Origin: Elusimicrobiota bacterium
GTDB lineage: Bacteria; Elusimicrobiota; Elusimicrobia; UBA1565
NCBI GenBank assembly: GCA_043819795.1
Contig: JBDREN010000223.1
Coordinates: 1-25,113, forward strand
Length of the DNA: 25,113 nucleotides
Direction of reading: 5' to 3'
Shown one piece after another: positions 4,539 through 23,841 of the stretch. The position numbers and the translations under genes were made by a program. Every line of letters starts with the position of its first letter. The first letter of the stretch is position 1. The notes under the pieces are model-generated. The model searched no databases, was not told the origin of the DNA, and saw nothing but the letters and a program-made list of their open reading frames with translations.

Positions 4539-4703
4539 ATTCGGGAACCTCCGGCATCGAACCGGGCGTAAACCTATTATAGAGCATTTGGCCGGGGGAA
4601 ATAGCTATCAGCACGCTATTCCGGGCCTTGCCGGGATTTGAAAGCGGGAAGAAAAATTATACAATTATCCCGAATTGATCCTAGACCGCCGGAGGCTAAC
4701 GAC

Positions 4704-5225
4704 ATGGCGAATCTATACACGATCCTCAAGTCCGAGATCGTCCGCTTGGCACGCCGGGCCACGCGCCCGACGTTCGCTAAAATGAAGAAAGACGTGGTGG
4801 TGCTCAAGCATCAGAACGCCGAGTATCGGCGCATCCTGACGCAGCTTCAGCGCGACAACACCCATCTCATGACCGATCTGAACGCAAAGCTCAAGGCCCC
4901 GCCGAAAGCCTCCGAGAAGGAGCTCGAGATCGCGCGGCTCAGCCCGCGCCTGATCCGGAGCCAGCGCAAGCGCCTGGGCCTGTCCCGGGAGAGCTTCGCG
5001 AAGCTGCTGGGCGTGAGCGCCGGCTCGGTCGTCGGCTGGGAAGGCGGCAAGGCCAAGCCGCGCGCGGCCGCCAGGGGCGCTTTGATCGGCATCCGGAAGC
5101 TCGGCAAGCGCGAGGCGCGCAAGCGGCTCGAGGTGATCGGGAAAGAGGGGAACGGCTCGACCAAGCACCACGTCAAGAAGCACAAGCGGATCCACGTGCA
5201 GGCGAAGCAGGTCTCGGTCAATTAG
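4704..5225 (+). CDS. XRE-family HTH DNA-binding protein with N-terminal coiled coil
   Basis: GGAGG RBS before ATG 4704; IRSQRKRLGLSRESFAKLLGVSAGSVVGWEGGKAKP is a Cro/C1-type HTH; TTGAAA-N16-TACAAT at 4638-4665. Confidence 0.85.
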   Translation: MANLYTILKSEIVRLARRATRPTFAKMKKDVVVLKHQNAEYRRILTQLQRDNTHLMTDLNAKLKAPPKASEKELEIARLSPRLIRSQRKRLGLSRESFAKLLGVSAGSVVGWEGGKAKPRAAARGALIGIRKLGKREARKRLEVIGKEGNGSTKHHVKKHKRIHVQAKQVSVN

Positions 5226-6785: not shown

Positions 6786-7571
6786 ATGACCCAGAACGCC
6801 TCCGAGAGGGAACTCCGGACCGAGGTCGTCCGCTACGCCAAGCTGCTCGCCGCGAAGGACTTCGCGCCGGGGACATCCGGCAACATCAGCGCCCGCCTGG
6901 ACGCGCGGCGCGTCCTGATCACCCCGAGCGGCATCGGCAAGGGGGATCTCCGGACCGAGGACCTGGTGGTCGTGGACATGGGCGGCCGCCGGCTCTCGGG
7001 CCGGCACGCGCCCACATCCGAGTCGGCGATGCACAGGATGATCCTGCGGGCCCGCCCCGACGTCCAGGCCGTCGTCCACGCCCACCCGGCCACGGCCACG
7101 GGCTTCGCGTGCGCGGGCGTCGCTCTCGACCAGCCCCTGGCCTCCGAGTTCATCCAGGCGCTCGGCTGCGCGCCCCTGGCCCCCTACGGCACGCCGGGGA
7201 CCGAGGAGCTTCCCGAGTCCCTTCGGGGCCTGGTCAAGGACCATGACGCCATCCTCCTGGCGAACCACGGCGTCGTGACGTTCGGGGGTGACCTTTTCGA
7301 CGCCTTCGCGAAGATGGAGCTTGTCGAGCACTACGCGCGCATCCTGCTCGTCGTGAGGCAGCTCAAGCGCGAGCAGCCGCTGCGGGAGGAGGAAGTGGTG
7401 AAGCTCCTCGAGGCGCGGGCCCGCTACTTCGGCCTCGATAAGCCCCCCGAGCGCCAGCCCCGATGCCCCACCCGGGGAACGGGAGCCGCCCCCGTCGCCG
7501 CGCCGGCAGGGAAAGGGGCGTCCCGGCGGGACCTCGAGCGGATCATCGAAGAGGTCCTGAAAAAGCTCTGA
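6786..7571 (+). CDS. Class II aldolase/adducin family protein (FucA-like)
   Basis: GTSGNISAR, ITPSG, PTSESAMH, VVHAHP, LLANHGVV metal-binding motifs. Confidence 0.92.
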   Translation: MTQNASERELRTEVVRYAKLLAAKDFAPGTSGNISARLDARRVLITPSGIGKGDLRTEDLVVVDMGGRRLSGRHAPTSESAMHRMILRARPDVQAVVHAHPATATGFACAGVALDQPLASEFIQALGCAPLAPYGTPGTEELPESLRGLVKDHDAILLANHGVVTFGGDLFDAFAKMELVEHYARILLVVRQLKREQPLREEEVVKLLEARARYFGLDKPPERQPRCPTRGTGAAPVAAPAGKGASRRDLERIIEEVLKKL

Positions 7572-7631: not shown

Positions 7632-8669
7632 ATGCTGCAGGAGCGTAAATTCAAGCACCTGAAGATCTGCGCCGAGATGGACGTGGAGTTCAGGGACACG
7701 ACCACCTTGCTCGAGGACGTTCATCTCGTGCACGAGGCTCTCGCGGAAATCTCGTTCGACGAGATCGACACGCGGACGAGCTTCATGGGTAAGCCCCTGC
7801 GGGCGCCCCTGATGATAAGCGCCATGTCCGGCGGGGTGAAGGAGGCCGCGGCCCTGAACAGGGACCTCGCCAAGGCGGCCCAGGAACTCGGCATCGCGTT
7901 CTGCCTGGGAAGCCAGCGCCCCATGCTCGAGGACCGCAAGCAGGCGCGGTCCTATCAGGTCCGCCGTTACGCCCCCGACGCGCTGATCCTCGGCAATCTG
8001 GGCGTCCAGCAGGCGGCGGCTACCGAGCCGGAGCGGATCGTGGAGCTCGCCGAGGACGTCCGGGCGGACGGTATGGCGATCCATCTCAATCCCGCCATGG
8101 AGCTCAGCCAGCGAGAGGGCGACCGGCGCTTCCCCGACGGTTACCGGACCCTGAAGGCCTTGACCAAGCGCATGCCCGGCAGGATTATGGTGAAGGAGAC
8201 GGGCTGCGGCATCTCGCGGACCGTGGCCGCCAAGCTGAAGAAGGCGGGGGTCAAGACGCTGGACGTGGCGGGGGCGGGAGGGACGTCGTGGCCCCGGGTC
8301 GAGCATCTGAGAAGCGGCATGAAGCCCTCCGAAAGGCCGTGGATGGACGAATGGGGCATCCCCACGGCCGCCTCTCTCCTCGACGTTTCGGGCATGGGTT
8401 TCCAGCTCGCAGGGTCGGGCGGGATACGGACGGGGCTGGACGCGGCCAAATGCCTCGTTCTGGGCGCAGATGTCGCCGGCGCGGCCCTCCCGGTCCTCCG
8501 GGCCTACCGGAGCGGCGGCTACAAAGGCGCGCTCGCCTATCTCCGGAATCTCATCAAAGAGCTTAAGTCCGTGATGCTTCTGGTCGGGGCCAAAGACATC
8601 CGTTCTTTGAAGAAGCATAAACCGATGATCACAGGAAGACTCAGAGAATGGCAAACGCGCAGAAAGTGA
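7632..8669 (+). CDS. fni: Type 2 isopentenyl-diphosphate Delta-isomerase (FMN-dependent)
   Basis: RKxxH, SAMSGG, GSQR, NLG, HLNP, VKETGCGIS, DVAGAGGTSW, WGIPT, SGGIRTGLD. Confidence 0.95.
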   Translation: MLQERKFKHLKICAEMDVEFRDTTTLLEDVHLVHEALAEISFDEIDTRTSFMGKPLRAPLMISAMSGGVKEAAALNRDLAKAAQELGIAFCLGSQRPMLEDRKQARSYQVRRYAPDALILGNLGVQQAAATEPERIVELAEDVRADGMAIHLNPAMELSQREGDRRFPDGYRTLKALTKRMPGRIMVKETGCGISRTVAAKLKKAGVKTLDVAGAGGTSWPRVEHLRSGMKPSERPWMDEWGIPTAASLLDVSGMGFQLAGSGGIRTGLDAAKCLVLGADVAGAALPVLRAYRSGGYKGALAYLRNLIKELKSVMLLVGAKDIRSLKKHKPMITGRLREWQTRRK

Positions 8670-9985
8670 TGGAGGAAGCGCCGGAGAAGCAGAGGACCTC
8701 CCGCTTCCCCGGGTTCTACAAGTTGGACGTCTGGGAGCGCCTCGACAAGCTCGACGAGTGGCTCCGCCTTTCGACCAAGGAGAAGTGGATCCTCAAGAAC
8801 GAGACGCTCACGGCCGAAAAGGCCGATACGCTGATTGAGAACGTCATCGGCGTATTCGGGCTGCCCCTGGGGCTCGCGGTCAATTTCAGGATAGACGACA
8901 AGGACTACATCGTGCCCATGGCCGTGGAGGAGACCTCCATCGTCGCCGCGGTCAGCTACGCCGCGAAGCTCATCCGGGACCACGGCAAGATATCCTCCAC
9001 CTCCTCCGCCCCCATCATGGAGGGGCAGATACAGCTGGTCAACGTCAAGAACCCCGACGAGGCCGTCAGGCAGCTCAAGAAGGCCAAGCAGAGGCTCCTG
9101 CGCCTGGCGAACAAGCAGGACCGGATGCTGGCGAAGCTGGGCGGAGGGGCGAAGGATCTCTACGTCCGCAAGCTCAAGACCAAGAGCGGCCCCATGCTCA
9201 TCGTCCATTTGTCGGTGGACGTGGTGGACGCGATGGGGGCCAACGCCGTGAACACGATGGTCGAGACCCTGGGCCCCATCGTCGCCGAGATATCGGGAGG
9301 GGAGCTTCTCTGCCAGATCATCACCAACCTCTGCGACAAGTCCCTCGTGACGGCGCGCTTCGAGGTGCCGGTGGATTGCCTGGCGAAGAGCGGCTTCTCC
9401 GGCAAGGATGTCGCCGAGCGGATCGTCAAGGCGTATCATTTCGCGGACGCGGATCCCTACCGGGCGACGACCCATAACAAGGGCGTCATGAACGGCATCG
9501 ACGGCATCCTCATCGCCACGGGCAACGACTGGAGGGCCGTTGAGGCGGCCTGCCACGCGTTCGCCGCGAGGGACGGCCAGTATCGCCCTTTGACCGAGTA
9601 CAGGATCAGCGGCGACAAGCTGATCGGCAAGATCACGCTGCCCCTCGCCGTCGGCACGATCGGCGGGGTCACGAAGCTGCATCCGGGCGTCGAGATACTC
9701 CTCAAGCTGATGGGGATCACCTCGAGGCGGGAGCTGGCCGAGGTCATGGCGGCCTCGGGTCTCCTTCAGAACCTGGCGGCGGTGCGCGCCCTGGTCACCG
9801 AAGGGATCCAGCAGGGGCACATGAGCCTCCACGCCAGGAACGTGGCCTACTCGGCCGGCGCGTGGGGCAACATGGCGATCGAGGTCGCGGACCAGATGGT
9901 GCAGGAAGGGCGGATCCGCTTCGACCGGGCGAGGGAGATCGTCAAGAAGATGCTCGCCCAGCGCCAGAACGGCAAGAAGGGCTAA
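8648..9985 (+). CDS. mvaA: HMG-CoA reductase, class II
   Basis: SRFPGFYK, IENVIG, PMAVEETSIVAA, DAMGAN, RATTHNKGVMNGIDG, TGNDWRAVEA, EGIQQGHMSLHARN. Alternative start ATG 8669 overlaps the fni stop (TGATG). Confidence 0.95.
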   Translation: MANAQKVMEEAPEKQRTSRFPGFYKLDVWERLDKLDEWLRLSTKEKWILKNETLTAEKADTLIENVIGVFGLPLGLAVNFRIDDKDYIVPMAVEETSIVAAVSYAAKLIRDHGKISSTSSAPIMEGQIQLVNVKNPDEAVRQLKKAKQRLLRLANKQDRMLAKLGGGAKDLYVRKLKTKSGPMLIVHLSVDVVDAMGANAVNTMVETLGPIVAEISGGELLCQIITNLCDKSLVTARFEVPVDCLAKSGFSGKDVAERIVKAYHFADADPYRATTHNKGVMNGIDGILIATGNDWRAVEAACHAFAARDGQYRPLTEYRISGDKLIGKITLPLAVGTIGGVTKLHPGVEILLKLMGITSRRELAEVMAASGLLQNLAAVRALVTEGIQQGHMSLHARNVAYSAGAWGNMAIEVADQMVQEGRIRFDRAREIVKKMLAQRQNGKKG

Positions 9986-10045
9986 CGACCTTCCCGGCTC
10001 GCCGGCGGCGCATCGCCCGCGGCCGTCTTTGATACCGGTGGCCGC

Positions 10046-11014
10046 ATGAGAGCAGCGACGGGAAGAGCCCCCTCGAAACTTATCCTCCTCGGAGAACACG
10101 CGGTGGTCTACGGCCACCCGGCCGTCGCCGTCCCCCTCCAAAAGCCCGGCGCCGAGGCCTCGGTCGTCGCGACGGAGGGCGACGCTCCCGTGGCCGTGGA
10201 GCTCAAGGATTTCGACATCCGGTGGTCCCGCGGGGAGGACATCCCGGCGGACGAGGTGCGGCCCTTCGCGGAGCTCGTCGGCTCGGTGAGCCGCCGCTAC
10301 GAGAGCATCCCCGAGAACGGCTGGAGCCTTTCGGTCAGCTCCGAGATCCCCATCGGCTGCGGGCTCGGCAGCGGCGCGGCCGTCTCGGTCGCGGCCTTCC
10401 GAGCCGTGTTCCGGTGCTTCGGCGTGCCCCACACCCCGCGGGAGCTTTCCGACAGCGCGTATGAGATCGAGAAGATACACCACGGCACGCCCAGCGGTAT
10501 CGACAATACCGTCATCGCCACGGGAAGACCGGTGCTTTTCAGGAAGGGCGCGGCACCGGATTTCTTGAACGCGCCCGAGGCCCCCGTCTTCCTGGTCGTG
10601 GGATACACCGGGGTACGGCATAAGACGGTCGAGATCGTGTCGGACGTCGCCAAGGCCCGCGCGGCCGACAGAGCCGCCTACGACGCGATGTTCCGCGAGA
10701 TCGGGGACATCGCCCGGCGGGGCGCGGAGGCCTTCGAGAACGGGGCGTTCGAGGAGCTGGGCGGGCTCATGGGCGCCAACCAGCGGCTTCTCGAGAGGAT
10801 CGGCGTTTCGTCGCCGGAGCTGGACGGACTGGTCCGCGCGGCCCAAAAGGCGGGGGCTCTCGGGGCCAAGCTGAGCGGCGCCGGAAGAGGAGGCTGCATG
10901 GCGGCGCTGGCCGCCGACCGCGCCTCCGCGGAGAGGCTCAAGGGAGCGCTCGAATCGGCGGGAGCGGCCGCCGCCGTGGTCGCCACCGTTCTCGAAAGGG
11001 GGAAGGGATCATGA
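10046..11014 (+). CDS. mvk: Mevalonate kinase (GHMP family)
   Basis: APSKLILLGEHAVVYG, PIGCGLGSGAA, EKIHHGTPSGIDN, GAKLSGAGRGGC. Confidence 0.95.
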   Translation: MRAATGRAPSKLILLGEHAVVYGHPAVAVPLQKPGAEASVVATEGDAPVAVELKDFDIRWSRGEDIPADEVRPFAELVGSVSRRYESIPENGWSLSVSSEIPIGCGLGSGAAVSVAAFRAVFRCFGVPHTPRELSDSAYEIEKIHHGTPSGIDNTVIATGRPVLFRKGAAPDFLNAPEAPVFLVVGYTGVRHKTVEIVSDVAKARAADRAAYDAMFREIGDIARRGAEAFENGAFEELGGLMGANQRLLERIGVSSPELDGLVRAAQKAGALGAKLSGAGRGGCMAALAADRASAERLKGALESAGAAAAVVATVLERGKGS

Positions 11015-11565
11015 GGGCGATCGTCGGGATAACCGGGGCCTCGGGGGTCGTCATCGGGATCAGGCTGGCGGAGGAGCTCCTCGCCCGCGGCAACGAGGTC
11101 CACGCCGTCGTCACCTCCCCGGGTCGGGACGTCATCAAGCACGAGGTGGGCAAGGGCTTCAAGTTCCCGGCGAAGGTCCGCGTCCACGAGAACGACGATC
11201 CGCGCTCGCCGCTTAACAGCAGCTCGTTTTTGGCCGACGCGATGGTGGTGGCGCCCTGCTCTATGAAGTCCTTGGCCGGCATCGCCGCGGGCTACGCCGA
11301 CGATCTCCTGGTGCGGGCGGCGGACGGCATGCTCAGGACGGGGAAGAGGCTCATCCTCGTCCCGCGGGAGACCCCCCTGTCGCTCTCGGCCCTGGAGAAC
11401 ATGGCGGCATTGCGAAAGGACGGCGCGATCATCATGCCCCCGGCCGCGGCGTACTACCATCGCCCCAAGACGGCGGACGACATGACGAATTTCTTCGTGG
11501 GAAAGATCCTGGACCTGCTCGGCGTCGAGAACAGCCTGTACCGGCGGTGGGGCGATGTGCGCTAA
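11011..11565 (+). CDS. ubiX: Flavin prenyltransferase (prFMN synthase)
   Basis: VGITGASG, APCSMKSLAGIAAG, RAAD, LVPRETP, YYHRP; ATGA overlap with mvk. Confidence 0.95.
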   Translation: MRAIVGITGASGVVIGIRLAEELLARGNEVHAVVTSPGRDVIKHEVGKGFKFPAKVRVHENDDPRSPLNSSSFLADAMVVAPCSMKSLAGIAAGYADDLLVRAADGMLRTGKRLILVPRETPLSLSALENMAALRKDGAIIMPPAAAYYHRPKTADDMTNFFVGKILDLLGVENSLYRRWGDVR

Positions 11566-11568
11566 AGC

Positions 11569-11606
11569 GGTTCGCGCGGAAAATCCTCGGATTTTCCGCG
11601 CGAACC
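11569..11606. repeat. Long perfect inverted repeat between ubiX and the UbiD-family gene
   Basis: GGTTCGCGCGGAAAATCC-TC-GGATTTTCCGCGCGAACC, 18-bp arms, no U-tract. Confidence 0.85.
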
Positions 11607-11622
11607 AAGACCGTCTCCAGAT

Positions 11623-12912
11623 ATGATGGATATCCGATCGATCATCAAGAAGGACTCGGCCTCGGGGAAGCTCCGGGTCGTGAAGAAGAGGGTGAAGCCC
11701 GTCCTCGAGGCGGCCAGGCTGATCAACGACGCGGAGCCCGCCCCGGTCCTGCTCGAGAACGTGCGGGGAAGCAGAGTGCTGGCGAACGTCTTCCCCACCC
11801 GGGACGATTTGGCCCGGCGACTGGGAGTGGCTCCAAAGCGTTTCCTGGCCGAGCTTTCGGCGATCGTCGACGGTCCCGCCAGGCGCGGGCGCAGGGGGAT
11901 CGTCCGCAAGGAGGGATGCTACGGGAGCGTCGAGGTGCCCCGCTCGGAGATCTCCCGGCTGCCTTTCCTCACCTATTACCGCGGCGACGGAGGCCCCTAC
12001 CTCACCGCGGGCGTCTGGATCGTCCGCGATCCGCGACATGGGGTGAACCTCTCCTATCACAGGCTGATGATGACCGGGCCGCGCGAGGGCACCGTGCGCG
12101 TCGTGGAAAGGCGGGGGACCGACACGGCGCTCAAGAACAGCGGGGGGAGCCTCGAGGCCGCCATATGCGTCGGGGCTCCGGTGAACGTCCTGTTCGCGGC
12201 GGCCCTCTCGCCCGCTTCCGGCGTCAACGAGCTCGACATCGCGGCCAGGTTCGCGCAAGTGGAGCTCGTCCGCTGCAAGAGCGTGGATCTGGAGGTCCCC
12301 GCGTCCTGCGAGATGGTGATCGAGGGGAGGTTCACCGGGGAGACTGGCCCGGAGGGGCCCTTCGTGGACATCACCGGGACGATGGACATCGTCCGGCGAC
12401 AGCCGGTCTTCGAGATCACCCGCGTCGCCTGCGGGAAGGACCCCGTCCATTACACGATCGTGCCGGGCAAGATGGACCACAAGACGCTGATGGGCGTCCC
12501 GAAGGAGCTCGACATCTTTAGGGAAGCGGGCAAGGTGTGCCGATGCCTCGACGTGCGCATCACGCCGGGAGGCTCCTCCTGGCTGCACGCGGTCGTCAAG
12601 ATCGCCAAGCGGTCCGATAGGGACGGCCGCGAGGCGCTGAAGGCCGCGTTCCGGGCACATCGCTCGCTCAAGCACTGCGTGGTCGTAGACGAGGATGTGG
12701 ACATCGCCGATCCCGTCGAGGTCGAATGGGCGCTCGCCACGCGGTTCCAGGCGGACAGGGACATGATGGTCTTGACCGAACAGCCCGGGAGTTCCCTCGA
12801 CCCTTCGGCGTGCCATGTGGAAGGCAAGGGGAGCCAGGGAACGAAGCTGGGGCTCGACGCCACGATCCGGACCGGCGCCGACAGGTCGCTTTTCAGGAAG
12901 GTCCCCGGGTGA
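11623..12912 (+). CDS. UbiD-family prFMN-dependent decarboxylase, probable anhydromevalonate phosphate decarboxylase
   Basis: DGGPYLTAG, NLSYHRLM, EMVIEG, EGPFVDITGT, VVVDEDVD, VEWALATRFQ, GSSLDPS, TKLGLDAT. The specific function is inferred from operon context. Confidence 0.9.
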   Translation: MMDIRSIIKKDSASGKLRVVKKRVKPVLEAARLINDAEPAPVLLENVRGSRVLANVFPTRDDLARRLGVAPKRFLAELSAIVDGPARRGRRGIVRKEGCYGSVEVPRSEISRLPFLTYYRGDGGPYLTAGVWIVRDPRHGVNLSYHRLMMTGPREGTVRVVERRGTDTALKNSGGSLEAAICVGAPVNVLFAAALSPASGVNELDIAARFAQVELVRCKSVDLEVPASCEMVIEGRFTGETGPEGPFVDITGTMDIVRRQPVFEITRVACGKDPVHYTIVPGKMDHKTLMGVPKELDIFREAGKVCRCLDVRITPGGSSWLHAVVKIAKRSDRDGREALKAAFRAHRSLKHCVVVDEDVDIADPVEVEWALATRFQADRDMMVLTEQPGSSLDPSACHVEGKGSQGTKLGLDATIRTGADRSLFRKVPG

Positions 12913-12913
12913 G

Positions 12914-14152
12914 ATGAGGCTGTCTCCGGAGGAAGACGCGATCCTCGGCGGAAAGCTGGGGGGCGGGGCCGCGAAGGCCATGGAGATCCTCGCCGCCTTG
13001 CGCGAAATCAACGGCGCCCCCGATATGGTGGAGATCGGGTCCGTCCAGGTCTCCGGGGTCAGCTACAAGAACATCGGCGAGCACGGGCTCGCGTTCCTCG
13101 AGGAGTGGGCCGCGCAGGGCTCGAAAGCCGTCGTGCCGGCCTACATGAACCCCGGAGGCTCCGACAGGAAGCTCTGGAAAAGTCTCGGGTTCCCCGCCGA
13201 TTTCGTCGAGAAGCAGGAGAGGGTGATCTCCGCTTTGGAGCGGCTCGGGATCCAGCCGACGCTGACCTGCACTCCCTATCATGCCGGCCTGACCCCCGGG
13301 TTCGGGGAGCACGTGGCCTGGGCGGAGTCCTCCGCGGTCTGCTTCGCGAACTCGGTGCTGGGAGCGAGGACCAACCGGGAGGGAGGGCCCTCCGCGATCG
13401 CCGCGGCCCTTACGGGCAGGACCCCCAGACACACGCTGCACTTAGACGAGGGCAGGCTGCCCACCAGGATCGTCAAGGTCGAGTGTCCGGTGGAGGCCGG
13501 CGCGGACGCGGGCGCTTTGGGATACATGATCGGCCGCATCCTCGCCGCCGACAAGAAGGGCGGCGTGCCCTATATCACGGGCGCCAGACCGCCGGAAGGC
13601 CCGGCCCGGCTGAGCTGGCTCAAAGCGCTCGGCGCGGCCATGGCGGCGTCCGGCTCGGTGGGACTCTATCATCTCGACGGGGTCACGCCCGAGGCCGTTC
13701 AGGAGGGCGCCGCGCTGGCCTCGGCGGCGGGAAGCGAGACCGTTATCGACAGCATCGAGGAAGGGCGCAAGGCGCTTGGGTCAGGGCACGGCGGGATCGA
13801 CATGGTGGCGCTAGGGTGTCCGCACGCGTCCTCCGAGGACCTGGCGCGCATCGCGCGCATGCTCGGGGGCCGCAAAACGAAGGTGCCGCTCTGGGTCTTC
13901 GCGTCGGATGAGGTCCGGCGGAGGGCCGAGCGGGACGGCACGGCCGCGGCGCTCAAGGGGTCGGGCGCGGCCTTGGTGGCCGACACCTGCATGGTGGTGG
14001 CTCCCCTCAAGGAAATGGGAATACGGAGCGTGGCCACGGACTCCGGGAAGGCCGCGTTCTACCTCCCCTCCCACCAGGGGGTCGGGGTCTATTTCGGGAC
14101 CACGGAAGAGAACGTCGAGGCCGCGGTGAGAGGCGCTTGGAGCGCCGCATAG
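12914..14152 (+). CDS. Aconitase X large subunit, probable phosphomevalonate dehydratase large subunit
   Basis: QVSGVSYKNIG, TLTCTPY, AWAESSAVCFANSVLGARTNREGGPSA, ALGAAMAASG, LGCPHAS, DTCMVVAP (three candidate Fe-S Cys). Start set at ATG 12914. Confidence 0.92.
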   Translation: MRLSPEEDAILGGKLGGGAAKAMEILAALREINGAPDMVEIGSVQVSGVSYKNIGEHGLAFLEEWAAQGSKAVVPAYMNPGGSDRKLWKSLGFPADFVEKQERVISALERLGIQPTLTCTPYHAGLTPGFGEHVAWAESSAVCFANSVLGARTNREGGPSAIAAALTGRTPRHTLHLDEGRLPTRIVKVECPVEAGADAGALGYMIGRILAADKKGGVPYITGARPPEGPARLSWLKALGAAMAASGSVGLYHLDGVTPEAVQEGAALASAAGSETVIDSIEEGRKALGSGHGGIDMVALGCPHASSEDLARIARMLGGRKTKVPLWVFASDEVRRRAERDGTAAALKGSGAALVADTCMVVAPLKEMGIRSVATDSGKAAFYLPSHQGVGVYFGTTEENVEAAVRGAWSAA

Positions 14153-14153
14153 G

Positions 14154-14552
14154 ATGGGTAAAGCGCGGATCCAAGGCAGGACCATATTTCGAGGAACGGC
14201 CTCGGGCCCGGTGCTGAGGTCCGACGAGCCCGTCGGGTTCTTCGGACACTTGGACCCCGAGACCGGCGTATACCGGGAGGCCGGGCATCCCCTGGACGGC
14301 AAGTCCGTGAAAGGCAGCATCCTCGCGTTCCCGCGCGCCAAGGGCAGCACCGTGGGGTCCTACGTCATCTACGCCCTCAAGAAGACCGGCCGAGCCCCGG
14401 CGGCCCTGGTCATCGGGGAATGCGACACCATCGTGGCCGTGGGCGCGATCATCGCCGAGGTCCCGGCCGTGGACGGGATCGACATATCGAGGCTGAAGGA
14501 CGGAGCGGCGGCGCGGGTGGCGGACGGGGAGGTCATCGTTGAAGAAAGCTAA
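14154..14552 (+). CDS. Aconitase X swivel (DUF126) subunit, probable phosphomevalonate dehydratase small subunit
   Basis: FFGHLDPETG, GHPLDGKSVKGSILAFPRAKGSTVGSYV, APAA, IVAVGAIIAEVP. Confidence 0.92.
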   Translation: MGKARIQGRTIFRGTASGPVLRSDEPVGFFGHLDPETGVYREAGHPLDGKSVKGSILAFPRAKGSTVGSYVIYALKKTGRAPAALVIGECDTIVAVGAIIAEVPAVDGIDISRLKDGAAARVADGEVIVEES

Positions 14553-15348
14553 CGTCTTCGTGAAGCTGGGCGGATCGTTCATCACGGACAAGGCGGTGGC
14601 CTACAGGATGCTCGGCTCGCGCATCGTGTCGGCGGCCCGCATGATCCGCAAGGCCCTGGACCGCGCGGCCAAGCGGAAGGGCGGGCTCTCCCTCGTGCTC
14701 GGGCACGGGGCCGGCTCCTTCGGGCATGTCGAGGGCGTGAAGTACGGCGCCGTGAAGGGGGTCCATCCCGACTACGGATGGGAAGGGATGGTCAGGATCC
14801 GCCAGACCATGGCTAAGATGAATTCCCTCTTCCTGCGGCATTGCGGCGAGGGGGGGCTTTCCCCCGTGACCGTCTCGCCGTTCGCCGTGGCCACGGCGAA
14901 GGGGGGCGCCGTCACCCGCATCGACGTCAAGAACATCTCGGAGCTTTTGAGGATGGGGCAGATCCCCTTGGTCCACGGGGACATCGTTCCGGATACGAAG
15001 CGGGGCTTCACCATAGCCTCCACCGAGGACCTCCTGGCGGCCCTGAGCCGGCATCTGCGCTTCGACAGGGTCGTGATGGTGTCCAACACCGGCGGCGTGC
15101 TGGACGCGAAGGGCTCCGTCATCAAGCTCATCAACCGCCGCAACATGGACCGGATCGCCGGCCTTCTGGGCGGATCGGATTCGCCCGACGTCACGGGCGG
15201 CATGCGGCGGAAAGTGGAGAGGCTGTTCGCGCTCGTCGTCTCCGGCCGCGCCGGCGAGGCCCGCATCATCGGCTGCGTCCGGAAACCGGAAGACCTTTGC
15301 CGGGCGATCCTCGGAACGGGCGGCGGCGGGACGCTTATCAAGCCGTAA
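14539..15348 (+). CDS. ipk: Isopentenyl phosphate kinase (amino-acid kinase superfamily)
   Basis: VKLGGSFITDK, GHGAGSFGH (IPK signature His), PLVHGD, DVTGGMRRK; GGAGG before a TTG start that overlaps the upstream gene. Confidence 0.92.
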   Translation: MKKANVFVKLGGSFITDKAVAYRMLGSRIVSAARMIRKALDRAAKRKGGLSLVLGHGAGSFGHVEGVKYGAVKGVHPDYGWEGMVRIRQTMAKMNSLFLRHCGEGGLSPVTVSPFAVATAKGGAVTRIDVKNISELLRMGQIPLVHGDIVPDTKRGFTIASTEDLLAALSRHLRFDRVVMVSNTGGVLDAKGSVIKLINRRNMDRIAGLLGGSDSPDVTGGMRRKVERLFALVVSGRAGEARIIGCVRKPEDLCRAILGTGGGGTLIKP

Positions 15349-15470: not shown

Positions 15471-16055
15471 ATGAATATAAAATCCATCCTATATCTGGAC
15501 AAGCCCGGCAAGGCCGGATGCCCCGCGTGCCTGGCCGCCGCGGCCGCAAGGGCCGTCGAGCTCAAGCTCGAGCACGCGGTCGTGGCCAGCAGCAGCGGGC
15601 GGACGGCGCTGGACCTCGCCGCCGCGCTGAAGAAGGCGGGGAGCAAGGCCCGCGTCATCGCCGTAAGCTACGCGGCGAACTACGCGGCCAAATGGGTCCG
15701 GTTGGATCCGCGCATCAAGGCCCGGGCCGGGAAGCTCGGCGTGACGTTCATGACCGCCGGCCACGCCATGAGCGGCATCAATACGGCCATCCAAGAGGAG
15801 TTCGGCGGATGGACGCCCAATAAGATCGTCGCGGGCGCCTACTACACCATCGGCCACGGCTTTAAGGTCGCCTTGGAGGTGTCGGTGATGGCCGCGGACC
15901 AGGGCCTGGTCCCGACGAACAAGGAGATCCTGGCTCTGGGCGGGTCGGGCAAGGGCGCCGACACCGCGCTGGTCCTCACCCCGGCCTGCTCATCGGAGTT
16001 CTTCGGCCTGCACGTGCACGAGATCGCCTGCATGCCGCGCATAGCAAAGAGCTAG
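15471..16055 (+). CDS. Pyruvate kinase C-terminal-like alpha/beta domain protein (COG1751/MTH1675-like)
   Basis: YLDKPG...VVASSSGRTA...HAMSGI...GHGFKVALEVSVMAADQG...GGSGKGADTALVLTPA...EIACMP. Confidence 0.85.
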   Translation: MNIKSILYLDKPGKAGCPACLAAAAARAVELKLEHAVVASSSGRTALDLAAALKKAGSKARVIAVSYAANYAAKWVRLDPRIKARAGKLGVTFMTAGHAMSGINTAIQEEFGGWTPNKIVAGAYYTIGHGFKVALEVSVMAADQGLVPTNKEILALGGSGKGADTALVLTPACSSEFFGLHVHEIACMPRIAKS

Positions 16056-16079: not shown

Positions 16080-16970
16080 TCACTCCGCGATCGTCACGAA
16101 CACCCGGTGCGTGGCGCTGACCGGCGTCCCGATCGGAAGGCTCAGCTGCACCACGAACACGACCTTCTTGCCTCCCAGCTCCTTCGGGGGGGTGAGGATC
16201 AGGCGGATGTCCTTCACGCGGCCCCCCTTCACCCGGACCTTTTCGGGCTTGAACCTGATCCAGCTAAGGTCTTCGACCACCTCGTACCCGGCGGGAGGGG
16301 TGGATACGGGCCACTGGATGGCCTTGACCGTCAGCTCCAACGCTTCATCGTCGCGGTTAGTGAGCTTGAGGACCTTCTTCTCCTTGCGCTCGACGTCATA
16401 GCGCTTGCCCGCCTTGGCCTTCACGACGTGCAGAGCGTGGGGCCAGAGATCGAAGTTCAGCGTGGCCATCGCCTTGCGGGTCCGCTCTCTCTCGAGGGCC
16501 TCGGGGCCCGGGCCGATGGAGAACCGCAGGCGGCTCTTGACCCCGGCGGCCAGGAACCCTGTCCCCACCGTATGCGCCCAAAGCATCGCCTGGAAGTGGC
16601 GCCCCGCGAGTCCGGGCTCGTCCGGGATCGCGATGACGATGTCGGCGAAGCCCATGGATTCCGGCTCGATTAGCATGCGGGTGGGGTTGAGGGTTATCCA
16701 GGATGGATCGGGAATGGCCTCGTACGACGGCACGATCTTCTGCGGCGCCGGGACGACCGCTTCCACGACCACATCCACCGGCGCGTCCCCGCGGTTCTTG
16801 ACCGTGTACGGGACGCCCTTGAGCTCCCGGATGTTGTAGGTCCTCCCGAGCTCCAGGTTCTGGAAGGCGACGTCCACGAACTGGGAGGAGATCCCCACCC
16901 TGCCCCAGGCCGCCTGCGCCCCCAAGAGCCCCGCAAGCCACAAACCCAAGAAAAGCCGAATCACCCGCAT
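16080..16970 (-). CDS. Secreted hypothetical protein, probably two beta-sandwich (Ig/PapD-like) domains
   Basis: Signal peptide MRVIRLFLGLWLAGLLGAQAAWG; two internally similar halves (VKNRGD...SYEAIPDPSWI vs LTNRDD...GYEVVEDLSWI). Confidence 0.75.
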   Translation of the reverse strand: MRVIRLFLGLWLAGLLGAQAAWGRVGISSQFVDVAFQNLELGRTYNIRELKGVPYTVKNRGDAPVDVVVEAVVPAPQKIVPSYEAIPDPSWITLNPTRMLIEPESMGFADIVIAIPDEPGLAGRHFQAMLWAHTVGTGFLAAGVKSRLRFSIGPGPEALERERTRKAMATLNFDLWPHALHVVKAKAGKRYDVERKEKKVLKLTNRDDEALELTVKAIQWPVSTPPAGYEVVEDLSWIRFKPEKVRVKGGRVKDIRLILTPPKELGGKKVVFVVQLSLPIGTPVSATHRVFVTIAE

Positions 16971-17135
16971 GCCCGCCCCCCCGCGCCTCGGCCCGCGCCT
17001 TCGGGCCTCCCAGTAGCATAACCGCATCGGCCGGTTTTTGCCAGACTCCGCGCCGGGACAACGCGTGCGCGCGTCGCTTGCGTCGGCCGATTCAATAGGG
17101 GCTCATTTTTGCCTCCCGAAAAGGCATTTCCCTTA

Positions 17136-17319: not shown

Positions 17320-20300
17320 ATGATGAAAGCGAGGGATATTCTTTTTGCCGTGATATTGGCGATGCTTGGCTTGAGCCTGGCTTTGCCGGCAAGCGTCTTG
17401 GCCGCGGATGCCGACGACGACGGGATCGAGGACGAGGTCGACAACTGCCCGGCCATATACAATCCGGATCAGGCCGACAGCGAGTACGCCTGCATGGCCG
17501 GCGCGGAGCAGGGAGACGATTTCTGTATGGACGCGCACGAGCATGGCGGGGACGCGAGCTGGTTCGAGGCCACCGACTATTGCGCCGGCCAGAGCAAGAG
17601 GTTGTGCTCCAAGGAAGAATACATCTACGCCTGCGATCACGGCCTGGATATTTACTGGAACGAGCAGGGCCAGAACGAGGAATGGCGGGTCGATGACGGA
17701 AGCTGCAAGACGGGCGACAAGCCGAGAGTGGACTATATCGGATGCGATAATCCCAACTTTGACTGCTATAAGGAAACCGCCGCCAGGTCCTTCAGATGCT
17801 GCTCGGAGCCCATGTTCCCCGATGGCGTGGGCGACGCGTGCGACAACTGCCCGGCCATCCCGAACCCGGGCCAATCGGACGCGGACGGCGACGGGCTCGG
17901 CGACGCCTGCGACAACTGTCCCAGCGTGACTAATCCGGAGCAAATAGACGCGGATGAGGACGGGATGGGAGATCTTTGCGATGTCTGCCCGGACGATCCG
18001 ATGAACGATCCTGACGGCGACGGCGTGTGCAACGGCGGGGACAATTGCCCCGGCGCGCATAATCCCGATCAGTCGGACATCGACGGCGACGGGGTGGGCG
18101 ACGCCTGCGACAACTGCCCCGAGGAGCCCAACCTCTCGCAGAAAGACCGCGACGCTTTCGTCTTCGAGGACCGCTTCGCCGACAACAACATGTCGGGCCT
18201 TTGGAGCACGCACGCTTCCGCCGAGGCGTATTTCGCGGAGAAGGACGGGGCGATGCGGATAAGCGCCAACGGCGTCGATATCTGGACCGATAACGACGAG
18301 TACGGCGCGGTGTACACTTCCGTCACGGGGGACTTCGACGCGATCGTCAAGGTCGAGAGCCAGCAGAACACGGACGCGTGGGCGAAGGCCGGCATCATGG
18401 TCAGAAACGACATGGCCGCGGCCGGGGGCTCTTCGGGCTATGTTGTGCTCGTCGTCACCCCCGGCAACGGATACGCGATGCATTGGGATTCCGACGGCAA
18501 CGGCTTCCTGGAGAGCAACGTCAATATGGGCGCGTCGGTGTATCCCAGCTGGCTGAGGCTCGAGAAGCGAGGAACGACGTTCAAGGGCCTCTACGGTACG
18601 GAGGGCCCGGAGGGCCCATGGGTCAAGGTCGGCAAGTTCGACGTGGGGACCGCCGCCCCGACTCAGCATGTGGGGATGGCCGTCACGTCCCATAGCGGGG
18701 GCTCCATCAGCAAGGTCGTATTCGACGACTTTATGCTGTTCGGCCAGAACATGGGGGACGGGCTGGGAGACGCCTGCGATAACTGCCCGTTCTATCCGAA
18801 TCTCGAGCAGGGGGACTCCGACTCCGACGGGGCCGGGGACGCCTGCGACAACTGCCCGGAGGGCGAGAACCCGGGTCAGGAAGACGGGGACGGGGACGGG
18901 GCCGGGGACGCGTGCGACGCCTGCCCCAATGACCCGGATAACGACGCGGATAAGGACGGGCTGTGCGTGGAGTCCGATAACTGCCCCGTCACGTCCAACC
19001 CGGCGCAGACGGATTCGGACGGCGACGGCCTGGGGGACGCGTGCGACAACTGCCCCTATCACCACAACCCCGACCAAGCGGACACCGACGGCGACGGCAT
19101 CGCGGACGCGTGCGACGCGTATCCCTACGACAGGGACAATGACGGCGTCGAGGACGATCCCGACAATTGCCCGGACGCTCACAACCCCGATCAAGGCGAC
19201 GGGGATGCCGACGGTCTGGGAGACGCCTGCGACAACTGCCCCGCCGACCACAACCCGGACCAGGCGGACACCGACGGCGCGCCGGGCAAGGTGTCTTATT
19301 GGAAGCTTGATGAGGCTTCCGGGACGACCGCGGACGATTCCGCCGATGATAATCCGGGGACCCTCGTCGGCGGGCCCGTATGGACATCCGGTCAGATCGG
19401 CGGCGCGCTGGAATTCGACGGCAAGGATGATTACGTCGATGTCGGGGATGACGCGAGCCTGCATGTTCTCGACGATGTCTCCAGGGAGTTTACGGTCGCG
19501 GCGTGGGCGAAATATGACGCGATAGCCGGCAACGACATCATCGCCGGAACGAGCGTGGTGGGACATGACCAGTGGAGCTTCACGTCCTGGTATCTGGGCT
19601 GGTGGACGACCGGGACGACCGAGATAGCCTTCCATATCTTCCGAGACCCTGATAACGCGGGGCTCACCGCCAATTCTCATGTCGTCCCGGAGGTCGGGAA
19701 GTGGTACCACGTGGTCGGCACCAGGGAGGGCGGCGAGCACAAGATCTACATCAACGGCGAGTTGAAGGACCAGGTGCCGACCGCGAAGGCGTGGGACATC
19801 ACCCACACCTATATCGGAAGGACCTCGCAGGGCTACTTCCACAACGGCCTCGTCGACGAGGTCGCGATCTATGACCGGGCCTTGAGCGCCGAAGAGGTCC
19901 AGGCGGCCTATCAGGCGGGATCAGCGGGCCATGGCTATATGGGCGACGGCCTGGGCGACGCTTGCGACAACTGCCCGGCGGTCGGGAATCCCGATCAGGC
20001 GGATCCCGACTCCGATGGGCTCGGAAGCGCGTGCGACAACTGCCCCGATGCGTCGAACTCCGACCAGGCGGACGCGGACGGCGACGGCGCCGGGGACGCG
20101 TGCGACGCCTGCCCCCATGACGCGGACAATGACGCGGACGACGACGGGGTATGCGGGGGCGTCGACAATTGCCCCGATACGCCTAACCCGGAACAGGCCG
20201 ATCCGGACGGCGACGGCCTGGGGAACGAGTGCGACAATTGTCCCGATGACCACAACCCGGATCAGGCGGACACGGACGGCGACGGCATCGGTGACGCGTG

Positions 20301-23300
20301 CGACGAATACCCTTACGACAGGGATAACGACGGAGTGGATGACGGTTCCGACAATTGCCCGGACGCGCACAACACCGATCAAAGCGATTCGGACGCCGAT
20401 GGATTGGGGGACGTCTGCGACAACTGTCCCACCGACCACAATCCCGACCAGGCGGACACCGACGACGCGCCCGGAAAGGTGTCGTACTGGAGGTTCGACG
20501 AGGGCTCCGGCACGACGGCCGGCGATTCCGTCGGCGACAACCTGGGGACTCTCGTCAACGGGCCCGCATGGGCGCCCGGCAAGGTCGGCGGCGCGCTGAG
20601 CTTCGACGGCGTGGATGATTATGTCGATTTCGGGGACGTGCTGGAAAGCGATACGGGCACGATCTCGATGTGGATCCAGCCGAATATCAACGCCGACGAC
20701 AGGACACAGAATGAGTATCTGTGGTCCAATGGGAAAGGAGAGGGTTCCACCGGGGCGTGGTTCTTGAAGGCCAGGAACGCCTACGGGAATCCTCACGACC
20801 TGATCTTGTATATCTACGAAGTCGGCCAGAACTCCTACCCCGGCAGGGGCACGGAGTGGGACGACAACCATTGGCTCTCCGGGCAGTGGTATCACGTGGC
20901 CGTGACGTGGGATACGGGGCCCGGGGGATTCTTCCGGATATATAATGACGGCGCTCTTGTGTCGTCGTCCGTCTGCGATTCTCCCGGCAAGCCCGAGAGG
21001 CCGACGAGATTCGTGGCGGGGAGCATATGGGGGTATGAGAGTTTCAACGGCCTCATCGACGAGGTCTCCGTCTACGACCGGCCGCTGAGCGCGGAAGAGA
21101 TTCAAGCGGGCTATCAGGCGGGATCGGGCGGCCAGGGCTATATGGCCGACGGCGTCGGCGATGTCTGCGACAACTGCCCCGCGGTCGCCAACCCCGATCA
21201 GGCCGATAGCGACGGCGACGGCTCGGGCGACGTCTGCGACACGGATGCGGACAACGACGGCATCGACGACGACCTCGACAACTGCCCGTCGGTCCCGAAT
21301 CCGGGCCAGGAGATGACCGACGAGAGCGCGGAGTACGTGTGCTTCAACTTGAACGAGAACAACGCGGGAGCCCCGCTTGCCGTGACCAGCTTCGCGGACA
21401 ACAACACGATCTCCGTGAGCGGCGTGGGCCCCGTGCTGACCCTCGACCGGGGGCAGACGGGGACGGTCGCCGCGCCCCGGGGCGCGCCCATCGTGGGCGC
21501 GGGATTGTTCTACGCGGACACCACGGCCGATGGCGGCGCCCCGTGCGCCCCGCCGGGGTTCGCCGGGACCGAATTCATCTATAGGAGCGACCGGCACGCC
21601 GACGCGTTCTCCGTGTACGCGTTCACGGGCGCGCAGGTCGGCATCTACGACGGCGGCAAGCTGGTCGGAAGCGAGTCCGTCCGGCGGGGGGGCGTGAAGG
21701 TGGTCGCCCAGGACATTCCCAACGGGAACACGGTGAGGATCGTCTCCGACGCGCCCGTGCTCGTCTCCCGCTCGTCGAGCGAGGACGGCGACGGCTACAA
21801 CTTCTATCCCGCGGGCACCGACTGGTACGGGGTCCCCTCCCAGAACCTGGAGATCGGGGCCGGGCCCGACGGGGCTAACGTGACCATCTACTACAGCGAC
21901 GGGACGAGCCGCAACGAGTCGATTGGGCCTGACGGCGCCTTAAAGCTCGGCGGCCACGGCAACCATGGAGGGAGCTTCGCCGCCCACGTGGTCTCGGACA
22001 ACCCGATCGGCGTCCATCAGCTGGCGGACGGCGACGGGAGCGATGCGACGACCTTCCTTCCGGCCAAGGAGATGAGCTCCGAGTACTTCGTCCCTCAGGC
22101 GCTGCAGTATGTCGCCGTGGCTGCGCCGGCCGCGGGGACGACATGCACGCTCTACAGCCGCGACGGCAGCGCCTTGGAGACGCGGACGGGCGGAGCCCTA
22201 TCCGACCCCTACCCGAACTTCATCCTGTTCGGGGGATCGTCGCTGTACGCGGCGCGGGGCGCGCGGATGGAATGCGACCACCCCGTGTTCGCGTACTACG
22301 AGCAGGAGCTCAACGGCCAGGAGACGAACCTGTTCGGCGCGGCGCAGATGGGCGCCGCCACGGTCTTCTCCAACGGCTTGGGCGACGCGTGCGACGTCCA
22401 ATGCGGGGACGGCGTGGTGATGGCCTGGGAGATGTGCGACGACGGGAACGTCGCGGACCATGACGGATGCGATTCGCTGTGCCGGACCGAGGTCTGCGGA
22501 AACGGCGTCACGCAGCCGCATCTCGGGGAGCAGTGCGACGACGGCAACGAGACGGCGTGGGACGGATGCAACGCCGCGTGCCAGTCCCAGTGCGCGACTC
22601 CCCCTCCGGACATGATCAGCTGGTGGGACGGGGACGCCGCCGACGCGACGACCGTGTACGACATCCGGGACGGGAACCACGGAAGCCCGGCCAACGGCGC
22701 GGCGACCGCGCCCGGCAAGGTCGGGAATGCGTTGAGCTTGGACGGCGTCTCCCAATACGTCGAGGTGCCGGACAGCGAGAGCTTGGATATCTCCTCCGCG
22801 ATCACGATCGAGGCATGGATCAACGTGAGAGAGTTCCCGGTCTCGGGCGTGGACAGGATCGCGCATAAGCACCAGGCATATACTTTGGGGATCCAAGACG
22901 ACCATCTGTACGCCGGTTTTTGGAAGACGACGGAACCCGATACGATCGCTTCGGCGGCCACGCTGGAACCCGACAGGTGGCATCACGTGGCGGTGGTCCG
23001 CGGCGCCGTGGGCGATGTCGCCAGGTTGTACGTCGACGGCGTCGCAGCCCCGTTCACTTCCACGGCGGTGTCCGATATGCCTGTCTCTGAGAACGCTCTT
23101 TTCATCGGGATCGACGAAGACCTCGCTACCCGCGTCTTCAACGGTCTTATCGACGAGCTCGCCGTCTACAACCGAGTCCTGAGCGCGGAGGAGATACGAG
23201 GCGTCTACTTCGCGGGGGGCAACGGCAAGTGCAAGAACCGGCCACCCACGGCGGTCTGCCGGGATATCTCCGTGGCGCTCGACGCCTCGGGCCATGCCGC

Positions 23301-23841
23301 CATCGCCGCGGCCGACGTGGACGGCGGGTCCAGCGATCCCGACGGGGACGCGCTCGATATCAGCGTGACGCCCGCGGCCTTCGCTTGCGGTGACATCGGG
23401 GCGAACACCGTGACGCTGACGGTCGCCGACCCGATGGGCGAGTCGGATTCCTGCGTGGCGACGGTCACGGTGGCCGACGACGCGCCGCCCGTCATCGCGG
23501 GCGTGAGCGCCGATCCGGCCGCGCTCTGGCCGCCGAACCACAAGATGGCGCCTGTGTCGGTGTCCGTGGCGGCGACCGACAACTGCTCGGCCGCGCCCGC
23601 GTGCTCGATCGCGGGGATAGCGAGCGACGAGCCGGTCGACGGCTTGGGCGACGGCGACACCTCGCCCGACTGGGAAATCACCGGCGGCCTGTCGGCGGAC
23701 ATCCGGGCCGAGCGCTCGGGCGAGGGCGACGGCCGGGAGTACACGGTCCAGGTGAGCTGCGAGGACGCCTCGGGCAACAGCTCGTCGGGGACGGCGACCG
23801 TCGCCGTGCCGCACGACCAAGGCAAAGGCGGCAAGAAATAG
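17320..23841 (+). CDS. 2173-aa secreted modular protein: thrombospondin type 3 repeats, FGE/CLec-like domain, ConA-like domain, three LamG-like domains, IgGFc-binding-like region, Myxococcus-type Cys-rich repeats, C-terminal LWPPNHKM domain
   Basis: Signal peptide; many DNCPxxxNPDQxDxDGDGxGDACD repeats; ALxFDGxDDYV...WYHV...NGLIDEV LamG signatures; CGDG...CDDGN...DGC repeats (~22402-22593). Confidence 0.92.
18754..21144 (+). repeat. Tandem ~1.2-kb intragenic duplication (TSP3 block plus LamG)
   Basis: Units 18754-19941 and 19942-21144; both TSP3 blocks are 522 nt and colinear (e.g. [26 protein letters not shown] in both). Confidence 0.85.

Follow-up and report, generated by a model that had tools for sequence, protein, structure and literature searches.

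The archaeal mevalonate pathway of Aeropyrum pernix and Methanosarcina mazei uses a phosphomevalonate dehydratase (PMDh) that is a type IIb AcnX, a trans-anhydromevalonate phosphate decarboxylase (AMPD) formed by UbiD with UbiX, and an isopentenyl phosphate kinase (IPK), according to the available portions of its published descriptions (PMC10040528, PMC8184944, PMC12547664, PMC11052028). In the parts of the literature consulted it is described as unique to archaea or shared with Chloroflexota only; the mevalonate clade of that phylum already used an archaeal-type route (PMC6107057, in the part available), and the Chloroflexota are the only bacteria named with it in the accessible text of a 2026 review. 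We describe here an operon of eight genes predicted to encode the same enzyme set, located in a 25,113-nucleotide stretch of DNA (the window; GenBank assembly GCA_043819795.1, contig JBDREN010000223.1, positions 1 to 25,113 of the forward strand) from a member of the Elusimicrobiota. A bacterial precedent, in the Chloroflexota, a phylum from which the first-pass annotation of the window had mentioned bacterial cases, is Candidatus Promineifilum breve, in which Kanno et al. reportedly found the archaeal mevalonate pathway in 2024, with enzyme activities. The pathway is thus a known one; its novelty here lies in the host phylum and in the apparent displacement of the 2-C-methyl-D-erythritol 4-phosphate (MEP) pathway.

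As in the archaea, AcnX consists of two subunits with the same Fe-S and substrate ligands, the classical pathway's phosphomevalonate kinase (PMK) and its diphosphomevalonate decarboxylase (DPMD) are missing within the searches given below, and a trio of HMG-CoA synthase (HMGS), thiolase and DUF35 genes would serve the upstream steps. The system differs in its bacterial host, in grouping the eight genes of the lower pathway into a single operon (no archaeal locus examined has the full set within 10 kb of acnX) and in coexisting with, or replacing, the MEP pathway. Candidatus P. breve likewise has the pathway in a bacterium, although here the phylum is another and the gene lineage is distinct, forming for AcnX a 100/100 clade with Planctomycetota that is sister to KSB1. 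In contrast to the Chloroflexota, the background here is the MEP pathway, and its displacement is visible within genera. Both the MEP and the classical mevalonate (MVA) pathway occur in 2.42% of 4,249 species in the available part of one survey (PMC13001223), Streptomyces, Listeria and Mycobacterium marinum among them; these resemble the present case in having both pathways, an MVA operon and within-genus variation, but they use PMK and DPMD, whereas the operon follows the AcnX/UbiD route, which costs two thirds of the ATP of the other (PMC12547664, available text).

We propose, with a probability of about 0.9, that the operon encodes the conversion of 3-hydroxy-3-methylglutaryl-CoA (HMG-CoA) to isopentenyl diphosphate (IPP) and to dimethylallyl diphosphate (DMAPP) by the archaeal, trans-anhydromevalonate phosphate route, beside an intact MEP pathway in the genome that holds the window (G000) and as the likely sole source of IPP in 10 relatives. 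In this scheme HMG-CoA reductase (HMGR) would form mevalonate, mevalonate kinase (MVK) would phosphorylate it to mevalonate 5-phosphate (MVA5P), and a [4Fe-4S] AcnX heterodimer would dehydrate that to trans-anhydromevalonate 5-phosphate (tAHMP). UbiX would supply prenylated flavin mononucleotide (prFMN) to UbiD, which would decarboxylate tAHMP to isopentenyl phosphate with no use of ATP; IPK would then yield IPP, and Fni would isomerize this to DMAPP. HMG-CoA would come both from an archaeal thiolase-HMGS-DUF35 trio and from leucine breakdown, encoded in one shared gene cluster on another contig, C95. The gene identities, ligand residues and gene order are observed directly; the enzymatic activities are predicted.

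The eight genes (Table 1) all lie on the + strand, with family matches as the first-pass annotation had proposed, and its count of five tight junctions among seven, overlapping or with a 1-nt gap, holds on inspection of the sequence. fni and hmgR overlap in TGATG at 8667-8671 (or by 22 nt if hmgR begins at an in-frame ATG at 8648), mvk and ubiX share an ATGA overlap, 1-nt gaps separate ubiD from the acnX large-subunit gene (start 12914) and that gene from the small-subunit gene, and the latter overlaps ipk by 14 nt; gaps of 60 nt and 57 nt lie between hmgR and mvk and between ubiX and ubiD. A scan of the + strand revealed no consensus promoter site directly upstream of the aldolase gene or fni, and no terminator. 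The same eight-gene order is present in 14 of the 17 genomes found to carry the operon, the other three being broken off by contig ends, and the operon-bearing contigs of the 13 other genomes with this order reach 320 kb. In every carrier with a contig covering that stretch, mvk and ipk enclose the acnX/ubiD pair. Extra ORFs stand inside the operon in some carriers (L063, L073, L078), including between ubiX and ubiD.

Table 1. Positions and supporting matches of the operon genes and adjoining features in the window
Feature	Position	Strand	Evidence
class II aldolase, ends 60 nt upstream of fni	6786..7571	+	family match
fni, type 2 IPP:DMAPP isomerase, 345 aa	7632..8669	+	TIGR02151, 343 bits (cut-off 281)
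hmgR, class II HMG-CoA reductase, 438 aa from TGATG overlap	8669..9985	+	TIGR00532, 399 (cut-off 260); PF00368
mvk, mevalonate kinase, 322 aa	10046..11014	+	TIGR00549, 247 (cut-off 163)
ubiX, flavin prenyltransferase, predicted prFMN supplier, 184 aa	11011..11565	+	TIGR00421, 201 (cut-off 109)
perfect inverted repeat, 18 bp, 2-nt loop, in ubiX-ubiD gap; single copy in genome	11569..11606	.	sequence
ubiD family, predicted AMPD, 429 aa	11623..12912	+	TIGR00148, 312 (cut-off 245)
acnX large subunit, predicted PMDh, 412 aa	12914..14152	+	PF04412, E 1e-134
acnX small subunit, 132 aa	14154..14552	+	PF01989 (AcnX swivel), E 9e-31
ipk, isopentenyl phosphate kinase, 269 aa, TTG start	14539..15348	+	archaeal IPK NF040647, 143 (cut-off 120)

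Among solved structures the large subunit is closest to 7CNR, the type II AcnX of T. kodakarensis (TkAcnX; E 6e-89, against 2e-60 for type I), and the small subunit matches chain B of the same entry (E 2.5e-39); since the purified T. kodakarensis enzyme was inactive, 7CNR is an assigned and not an assayed PMDh, and its Fe-S and MVA5P ligands are listed in the available text of the same paper (PMC8184944). The large subunit keeps the three Cys ligands of sites A, 1 and B of the Fe-S cluster (C119, C302 and C359), with V361 at site C and so no Cys there, together with G48-V49-S50, N53, N79, E138-S139-S140, K379 and Y383. Counterparts in TkAcnX are E129/S130/S131 and K361/Y365 in the large subunit and S62/T63/V64 in the small one, where the catalytic Ser lies in S65-T66-V67, equivalent to Ser62-Thr63-Val64 and not to the Ser-Cys-Thr of type I. 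Ser replaces Ala47 and, in the small subunit, Phe replaces Leu27, and Ser47 and Phe/Tyr27 occur in archaeal or Chloroflexota homologues too. Of the Elusimicrobiota/Planctomycetota large subunits displayed, 16 of 16 keep this type IIb ligand pattern, four of them with Ile in place of Val49; it is seen in the 15 Elusimicrobiota proteins shown beside that of the window and in the Planctomycetota one. Type I AcnX, the hydroxyproline dehydratase, belongs to the same superfamily and has the catalytic Ser, Glu and Lys in common, but it is a single fused gene with a Cys-x-Cys [2Fe-2S] site, Asp203, Ile206, Trp35 and Thr72, placed beside proline epimerase genes; we rejected that identity, as neither these features nor a hydroxyproline gene context is seen in the operon and the window protein scores 269 against 700 bits in the type I test. 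The pair is therefore predicted to be the two-subunit archaeal form of PMDh. In a tree of 32 rows, hand-picked from 99 loci and 120 proteins with three type I outgroups, those outgroups are distant, and no grouping with cis-3-hydroxyproline dehydratases was seen.

The UbiD-family protein scores well short of the cut-offs set for aromatic-acid UbiD equivalogues (116 against 788 bits, for example), and we rejected a ubiquinone, menaquinone or aromatic-acid identity, with the UbiD, MqnL, VdcC and phenylphosphate carboxylase equivalogues all below cut-off. It carries the motif EGPF-x-D, common to all 18 displayed archaeal and Chloroflexota acnX-linked UbiDs (EAPF in one), where its best PDB match has EGPF-x-E, and it groups with acnX-linked Anaerolineae and archaeal UbiDs (98, quick tree). 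Context, motif and tree thus point to a predicted AMPD. The IPK has the IPK structure 3K4O as its best PDB match (E 4e-30) and retains His63, which we take to be catalytic. The MVK scores only 48 bits against the PMK model TIGR01220 (cut-off 166), and by tblastn it found only itself in G000 at E<=1e-5, a search for paralogues in which the PMK model itself was not run genome-wide. No GHMP decarboxylase (DPMD or phosphomevalonate decarboxylase, PMD) was found in any of the 101 genomes of the order, G000 included, with positive controls in Lactococcus, Haloferax and Sulfolobus, and a classical or haloarchaeal/Roseiflexus mevalonate pathway was accordingly rejected. The proposal that the genes form an archaeal PMDh/AMPD/IPK lower pathway is thus supported by families, AcnX ligands and trees; the stated absence of DPMD extends to all 101 order genomes searched, and that of PMK holds as far as the MVK search reaches.

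The host is placed by RpoB among the bacteria, in the phylum Elusimicrobiota, its best named relatives being Elusimicrobia with identities up to 86%. G000 is a metagenome-assembled genome (MAG) of 4.99 Mb in 241 contigs, 90.3% complete and 1.14% contaminated. The tetranucleotide distance of the operon equals the median of 525 genome chunks of equal length, the GC content at third codon positions of its genes is 0.85-0.93 against 0.90 for rpoB, and the flanks of the window are bacterial (MscS, a GreA/B-like protein and a tRNA). Public contigs match short pieces only, one of them bridging the 3' end of ipk; two public contigs of a relative bridge fni/hmgR and acnX-S/ipk, and none spans the whole operon. 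No RNA data set was listed as containing it, and the data set with the best match may be the source sample itself. A search for geranylgeranylglyceryl phosphate (GGGP) synthase/PcrB in five genomes (G000, G072, G350, G269 and G370) gave no match, so that there is no sign of archaeal ether lipids in them.

We compared samples of 301 genomes of the phylum, 393 of the class and 101 of the order to which G000 belongs, the last being MAGs, with carriers defined by AcnX, IPK and linked operon genes. G000 itself keeps all seven MEP steps (dxs, dxr, ispDF, ispE, ispG and ispH, each scoring above cut-off and free of stops), and the first-pass conclusion of isoprenoid synthesis by the archaeal route therefore does not follow for G000, which has both routes; sole reliance is indicated for ten of its relatives. 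Among the order genomes dxr is missing in 15, ispG in 13 and ispH in 15, and all three are missing together in 10 of the 17 carriers (84-97% complete, seven genera) against none of the 84 non-carriers, while the remaining seven carriers have the full set; these markers are not fully independent, ispG being linked to ispH in some genomes. dxs (above cut-off) and ispF are missing too in all three MEP-less genomes examined. In MEP-less genomes ispE stays at its own locus, with its N-terminal PAKxN/GYH motif, presumably catalytic, lost in G072 and G350 and intact in G269; ispE was not found in G309. The motif loss is consistent with an ancestral MEP pathway that decayed. The IspE homologues of G072 (L198) and G350 (L200) are still long frames, with synteny of the ispE locus seen for G072, and are possibly relics or repurposed proteins. 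The committed MEP gene, dxr, lies divergently next to the operon in G277 (L039 16123) and G178 (L040 15616), ~90-250 nt separating the two. Mapped onto a tree of RpoB from 41 genomes, of which 15 are carriers and the others 26 of the 84 non-carriers, the MEP-less state needs at least 6 changes. Strong indirect evidence thus makes it likely that the archaeal route replaced the MEP pathway, repeatedly, in relatives with the operon and without MEP genes, and the operon is likely the only source of IPP in the ten genomes lacking dxr, ispG and ispH. Because IPP is essential and no other route appeared among the families searched, this pattern, itself directly observed, is the strongest evidence here that the operon works; expression, and the split of flux between MEP and MVA in G000, we infer.

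Several observations weigh against a working operon that repeatedly took over from the MEP pathway. The MEP-less genomes are incomplete MAGs, and rpoB was found in only 70 of the 101 order genomes at E<=1e-150, so dropout is common. Six independent pairs give 3.9 concordant on average and none discordant (sign test, p about 0.125), too few for significance. The MEP-less G351 has a frameshifted fni, and two other MEP-less carriers, G072 and G269, are without detectable HMGS. The best PDB matches of the UbiD are other UbiD decarboxylases, and the trees include none of the enzymes characterised from A. pernix, M. mazei and P. breve, no characterised AMPD being in the comparison. Finally, the MEP pathway is complete in G000, so the operon there could be secondary or conditional. 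This leads to an alternative in which the enzymes act as described while the operon is dispensable or little used in G000, with the MEP pathway carrying the flux and the operon on its way to being lost, as may be seen in G305, where the MEP pathway is kept and frameshifts or stops interrupt fni, hmgR and ubiD. We consider this unlikely, though not negligible: six other carriers besides G000 keep dxr, ispG and ispH, yet the eight frames of G000 are all intact with every ligand residue kept, its archaeal HMGS trio and mccB-liuC genes occur with no match to HMG-CoA lyase, leaving HMGR as the only exit for HMG-CoA that was found, and G313, which of the genomes in the tree stands closest to it by RpoB, is MEP-less.

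It is very improbable that the AcnX/UbiD pair (AcnX then being of type IIa or IIc-f and UbiD a decarboxylase for an aromatic or other acid) acts on another substrate and merely sits among mevalonate genes. The functions of AcnX types IIc-f are unknown (PMC10040528, in the available part), and the solved UbiDs nearest to ours are other decarboxylases, but the conserved phosphate-binding and Fe-S ligands, the constant position between mvk and ipk, and the lack of another decarboxylase route in MEP-less carriers, among the families searched, all speak for phosphomevalonate. No more credible is a catabolic operon, in which class II HMGR would convert mevalonate to HMG-CoA, or a backward flow in which LiuC would turn HMG-CoA towards isovaleryl-CoA, after the manner of the myxobacterial AIB route. 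The TIGR00532 model does carry the label degradative, HMGS shares a cluster with liuC and the genes for methylcrotonyl-CoA carboxylase, and the AIB route is reported from Myxococcus; however, two ATP-dependent kinases and Fni set, by established knowledge, a biosynthetic direction, catabolism needs the HMG-CoA lyase that most mccB-bearing carriers are missing, and the loss of MEP genes goes with the operon. A branch through LiuC in reverse could exist beside the proposed pathway and would leave the operon unexplained. An assembly or binning artefact, whether an archaeal contig or a chimera, we regard as scarcely conceivable. The fragmentation of this MAG and the want of a public contig spanning the region allow for it, whereas host-like composition, bacterial flanks, low contamination, recurrence of the gene order on long contigs of 13 other genomes and closest named AcnX homologues in Elusimicrobia (64-73%) all oppose it; the bacterial host and the absence of a chimera, both claimed at the outset, have thus been upheld. 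We therefore retain the archaeal route from HMG-CoA to IPP and DMAPP as the predicted function of the operon.

The description of the pathway as complete in one operon applies from HMG-CoA to IPP and DMAPP; thiolase and HMGS lie outside, on C95, where the order is birA-mccB-liuC-mccA-biotin carrier-HMGS-thiolase-DUF35. The HMGS is of archaeal type (527 bits against a cut-off of 353), and the trio making up the upper pathway is thus joined to leucine-catabolism genes. Archaeal HMGS is present in 10 of the 101 order genomes, all of them carriers, and was not found in the other seven carriers. No match to HMG-CoA lyase was found in G000. Across the order, mccB occurs in 85 of 101 genomes and the lyase in 84; of the genomes that have mccB, 10 of 15 carriers (G000 included) lack the lyase, against 1 of 70 non-carriers. 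G072 (97% complete) and G269 (93%) show neither MEP genes nor HMGS, yet have mccB, liuC and HMG-CoA lyase, and a weak HMGS-domain match in G269 proved to be FabH. On the operon contig of G269, leucine genes, an acyl-CoA dehydrogenase gene and the undecaprenyl diphosphate synthase gene uppS are co-oriented ~7-14 kb from the operon, the run of leucine genes reaching uppS. Gene content would suggest that a pool of HMG-CoA from leucine already existed in the host and is the reason why the operon begins at HMGR; assembly gaps could account for the two genomes without HMGS. We tentatively suggest, as something that may well not hold, that this is a mobile plug-in operon fed by HMG-CoA from leucine, that carriers then drop HMG-CoA lyase and the MEP pathway, and that all isoprenoid carbon of G072 and G269 comes from scavenged leucine. 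If true, these two would be bacteria that rely entirely on an archaeal mevalonate pathway which saves ATP and is fed by leucine. The carriers G313 (L174) and G309 (L176) hold a second archaeal HMGS-thiolase-DUF35 trio, more divergent than the first, with HMGS identity of 56-58%.

The operon is restricted within its phylum. AcnX scored above cut-off in 5 of the 301 phylum genomes and operon-type UbiD (61-71%) was found in 16 of the 393 class genomes, all in the order of G000. The order sample has AcnX in 16 genomes and IPK above cut-off in 16, giving 17 carriers in 101 when G368, with acnX-S and ipk on a 3-kb contig, is counted. Set aside were 62 weak AcnX matches in the phylum sample (below cut-off, short, mostly at profile positions ~280-370 and probably other aconitase-family proteins), nine distant UbiDs (30-33%) in family f5 that are not the operon gene, and an IPK-like match in G144 (30%, below cut-off) with no operon around it. 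After the Elusimicrobia, the best named relatives of the AcnX are a Planctomycetota protein (68%) and then KSB1, Anaerolineae and Altiarchaeota (50-54%). On the Planctomycetia contig L078 seven genes of the operon are present with identities of 50-68%, the eighth, ubiX, not being found there, and hmgs-thiolase-DUF35 is divergent; the genome has dxs and ispF. At the Planctomycetia locus a four-helix 23S rRNA-IVP protein is inserted between acnX-L and acnX-S.

In the AcnX tree, eight Elusimicrobiota and Planctomycetota rows form one clade (100/100), sister to three KSB1/Zhuqueibacterota rows (99/95). A single Elusimicrobiota and Planctomycetota clade appears in each of the quick trees for UbiD, IPK, HMGR, MVK and Fni, and a single Elusimicrobiota clade in that for UbiX, which indicates that the operon moves as one unit. 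The type II AcnX clade is without resolution at its base, and no donor can therefore be named. Presence of the operon needs at least 7 changes on the RpoB tree, and this patchy distribution, with the sharing with Planctomycetota, indicates that transfer, repeated loss or both occurred. The argument made earlier against recent transfer is thus sustained by composition and qualified by distribution. In G354 (L217) RpoB groups with family f1, the genome label is f3 and the operon groups with genus g114; a misbinned contig is a possible reason. A hmgs-hmgR-ubiD-acnX-mvk-ipk-fni-ubiX cluster on a contig labelled Candidatus Nanopelagicaceae (Actinomycetota; L137) groups with Promethearchaeota in trees that include it, and represents misbinning or transfer from Asgard archaea. 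In seven Anaerolineae loci (L079, L080, L092, L105, L141, L152 and L154) AcnX large is present and neither the small subunit nor UbiD was detected in the locus.

By titles and the starts of abstracts we found no report linking Elusimicrobiota to mevalonate, although Kanno et al. in 2024, or the supplement, may list Elusimicrobiota, KSB1 or Planctomycetota homologues. A term search of the accessible text of a preprint on groundwater Elusimicrobia (10.1101/765248) gave no mention of mevalonate, and a figure legend there names the MEP pathway; PMC13001223 and PMC6107057 contain no mention of Elusimicrobia. The present genomes add a compact operon in a second bacterial lineage and display each stage of a swap: MEP only, both, and MVA only with a decayed ispE. 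How and why cells exchange one isoprenoid pathway for another, the question behind the lipid divide, thereby becomes testable within single genera, and the operon accounts for genomes that routine annotation would call isoprenoid auxotrophs. The repeated swap from MEP to archaeal MVA and the possible leucine feed are, in our view, of more interest than the extension to another phylum. For engineering, the operon offers a translationally coupled, bacterial and probably mesophilic version of the ATP-saving pathway, in which an oxygen-sensitive dehydratase is a stated concern in Escherichia coli work (PMC12547664, available text).

The class II aldolase gene upstream of fni adjoins the operon in five other carriers, co-oriented in one and divergent in four, and because of this varying orientation it is probably no part of the pathway. 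Directly after ipk (15471-16055, +) lies a gene for a 194-aa protein with no Pfam or NCBIfam match, which corresponds to a stand-alone pyruvate kinase C-terminal (PK_C) domain (ESM Atlas score 0.95, TM 0.94) and was not found adjoining the operon in relatives. It is followed by a gene for a 315-aa protein (16080-17027, -) of no family match, with a paralogue 79% identical on contig C185. A tRNA gene (438-508, -), an HTH_3 protein with a weak MqsA-like match (4638-5225, +) and an ADP-ribosylglycohydrolase (23927-25006, +) are encoded farther away. An ORF of 2173 aa (17320-23841, +) combines thrombospondin type 3 repeats with three LamG-like domains and with DUF4215/myxobacterial cysteine-rich repeats; it also has a weak match to FGE-sulfatase, and its product is likely a large surface or secreted protein.

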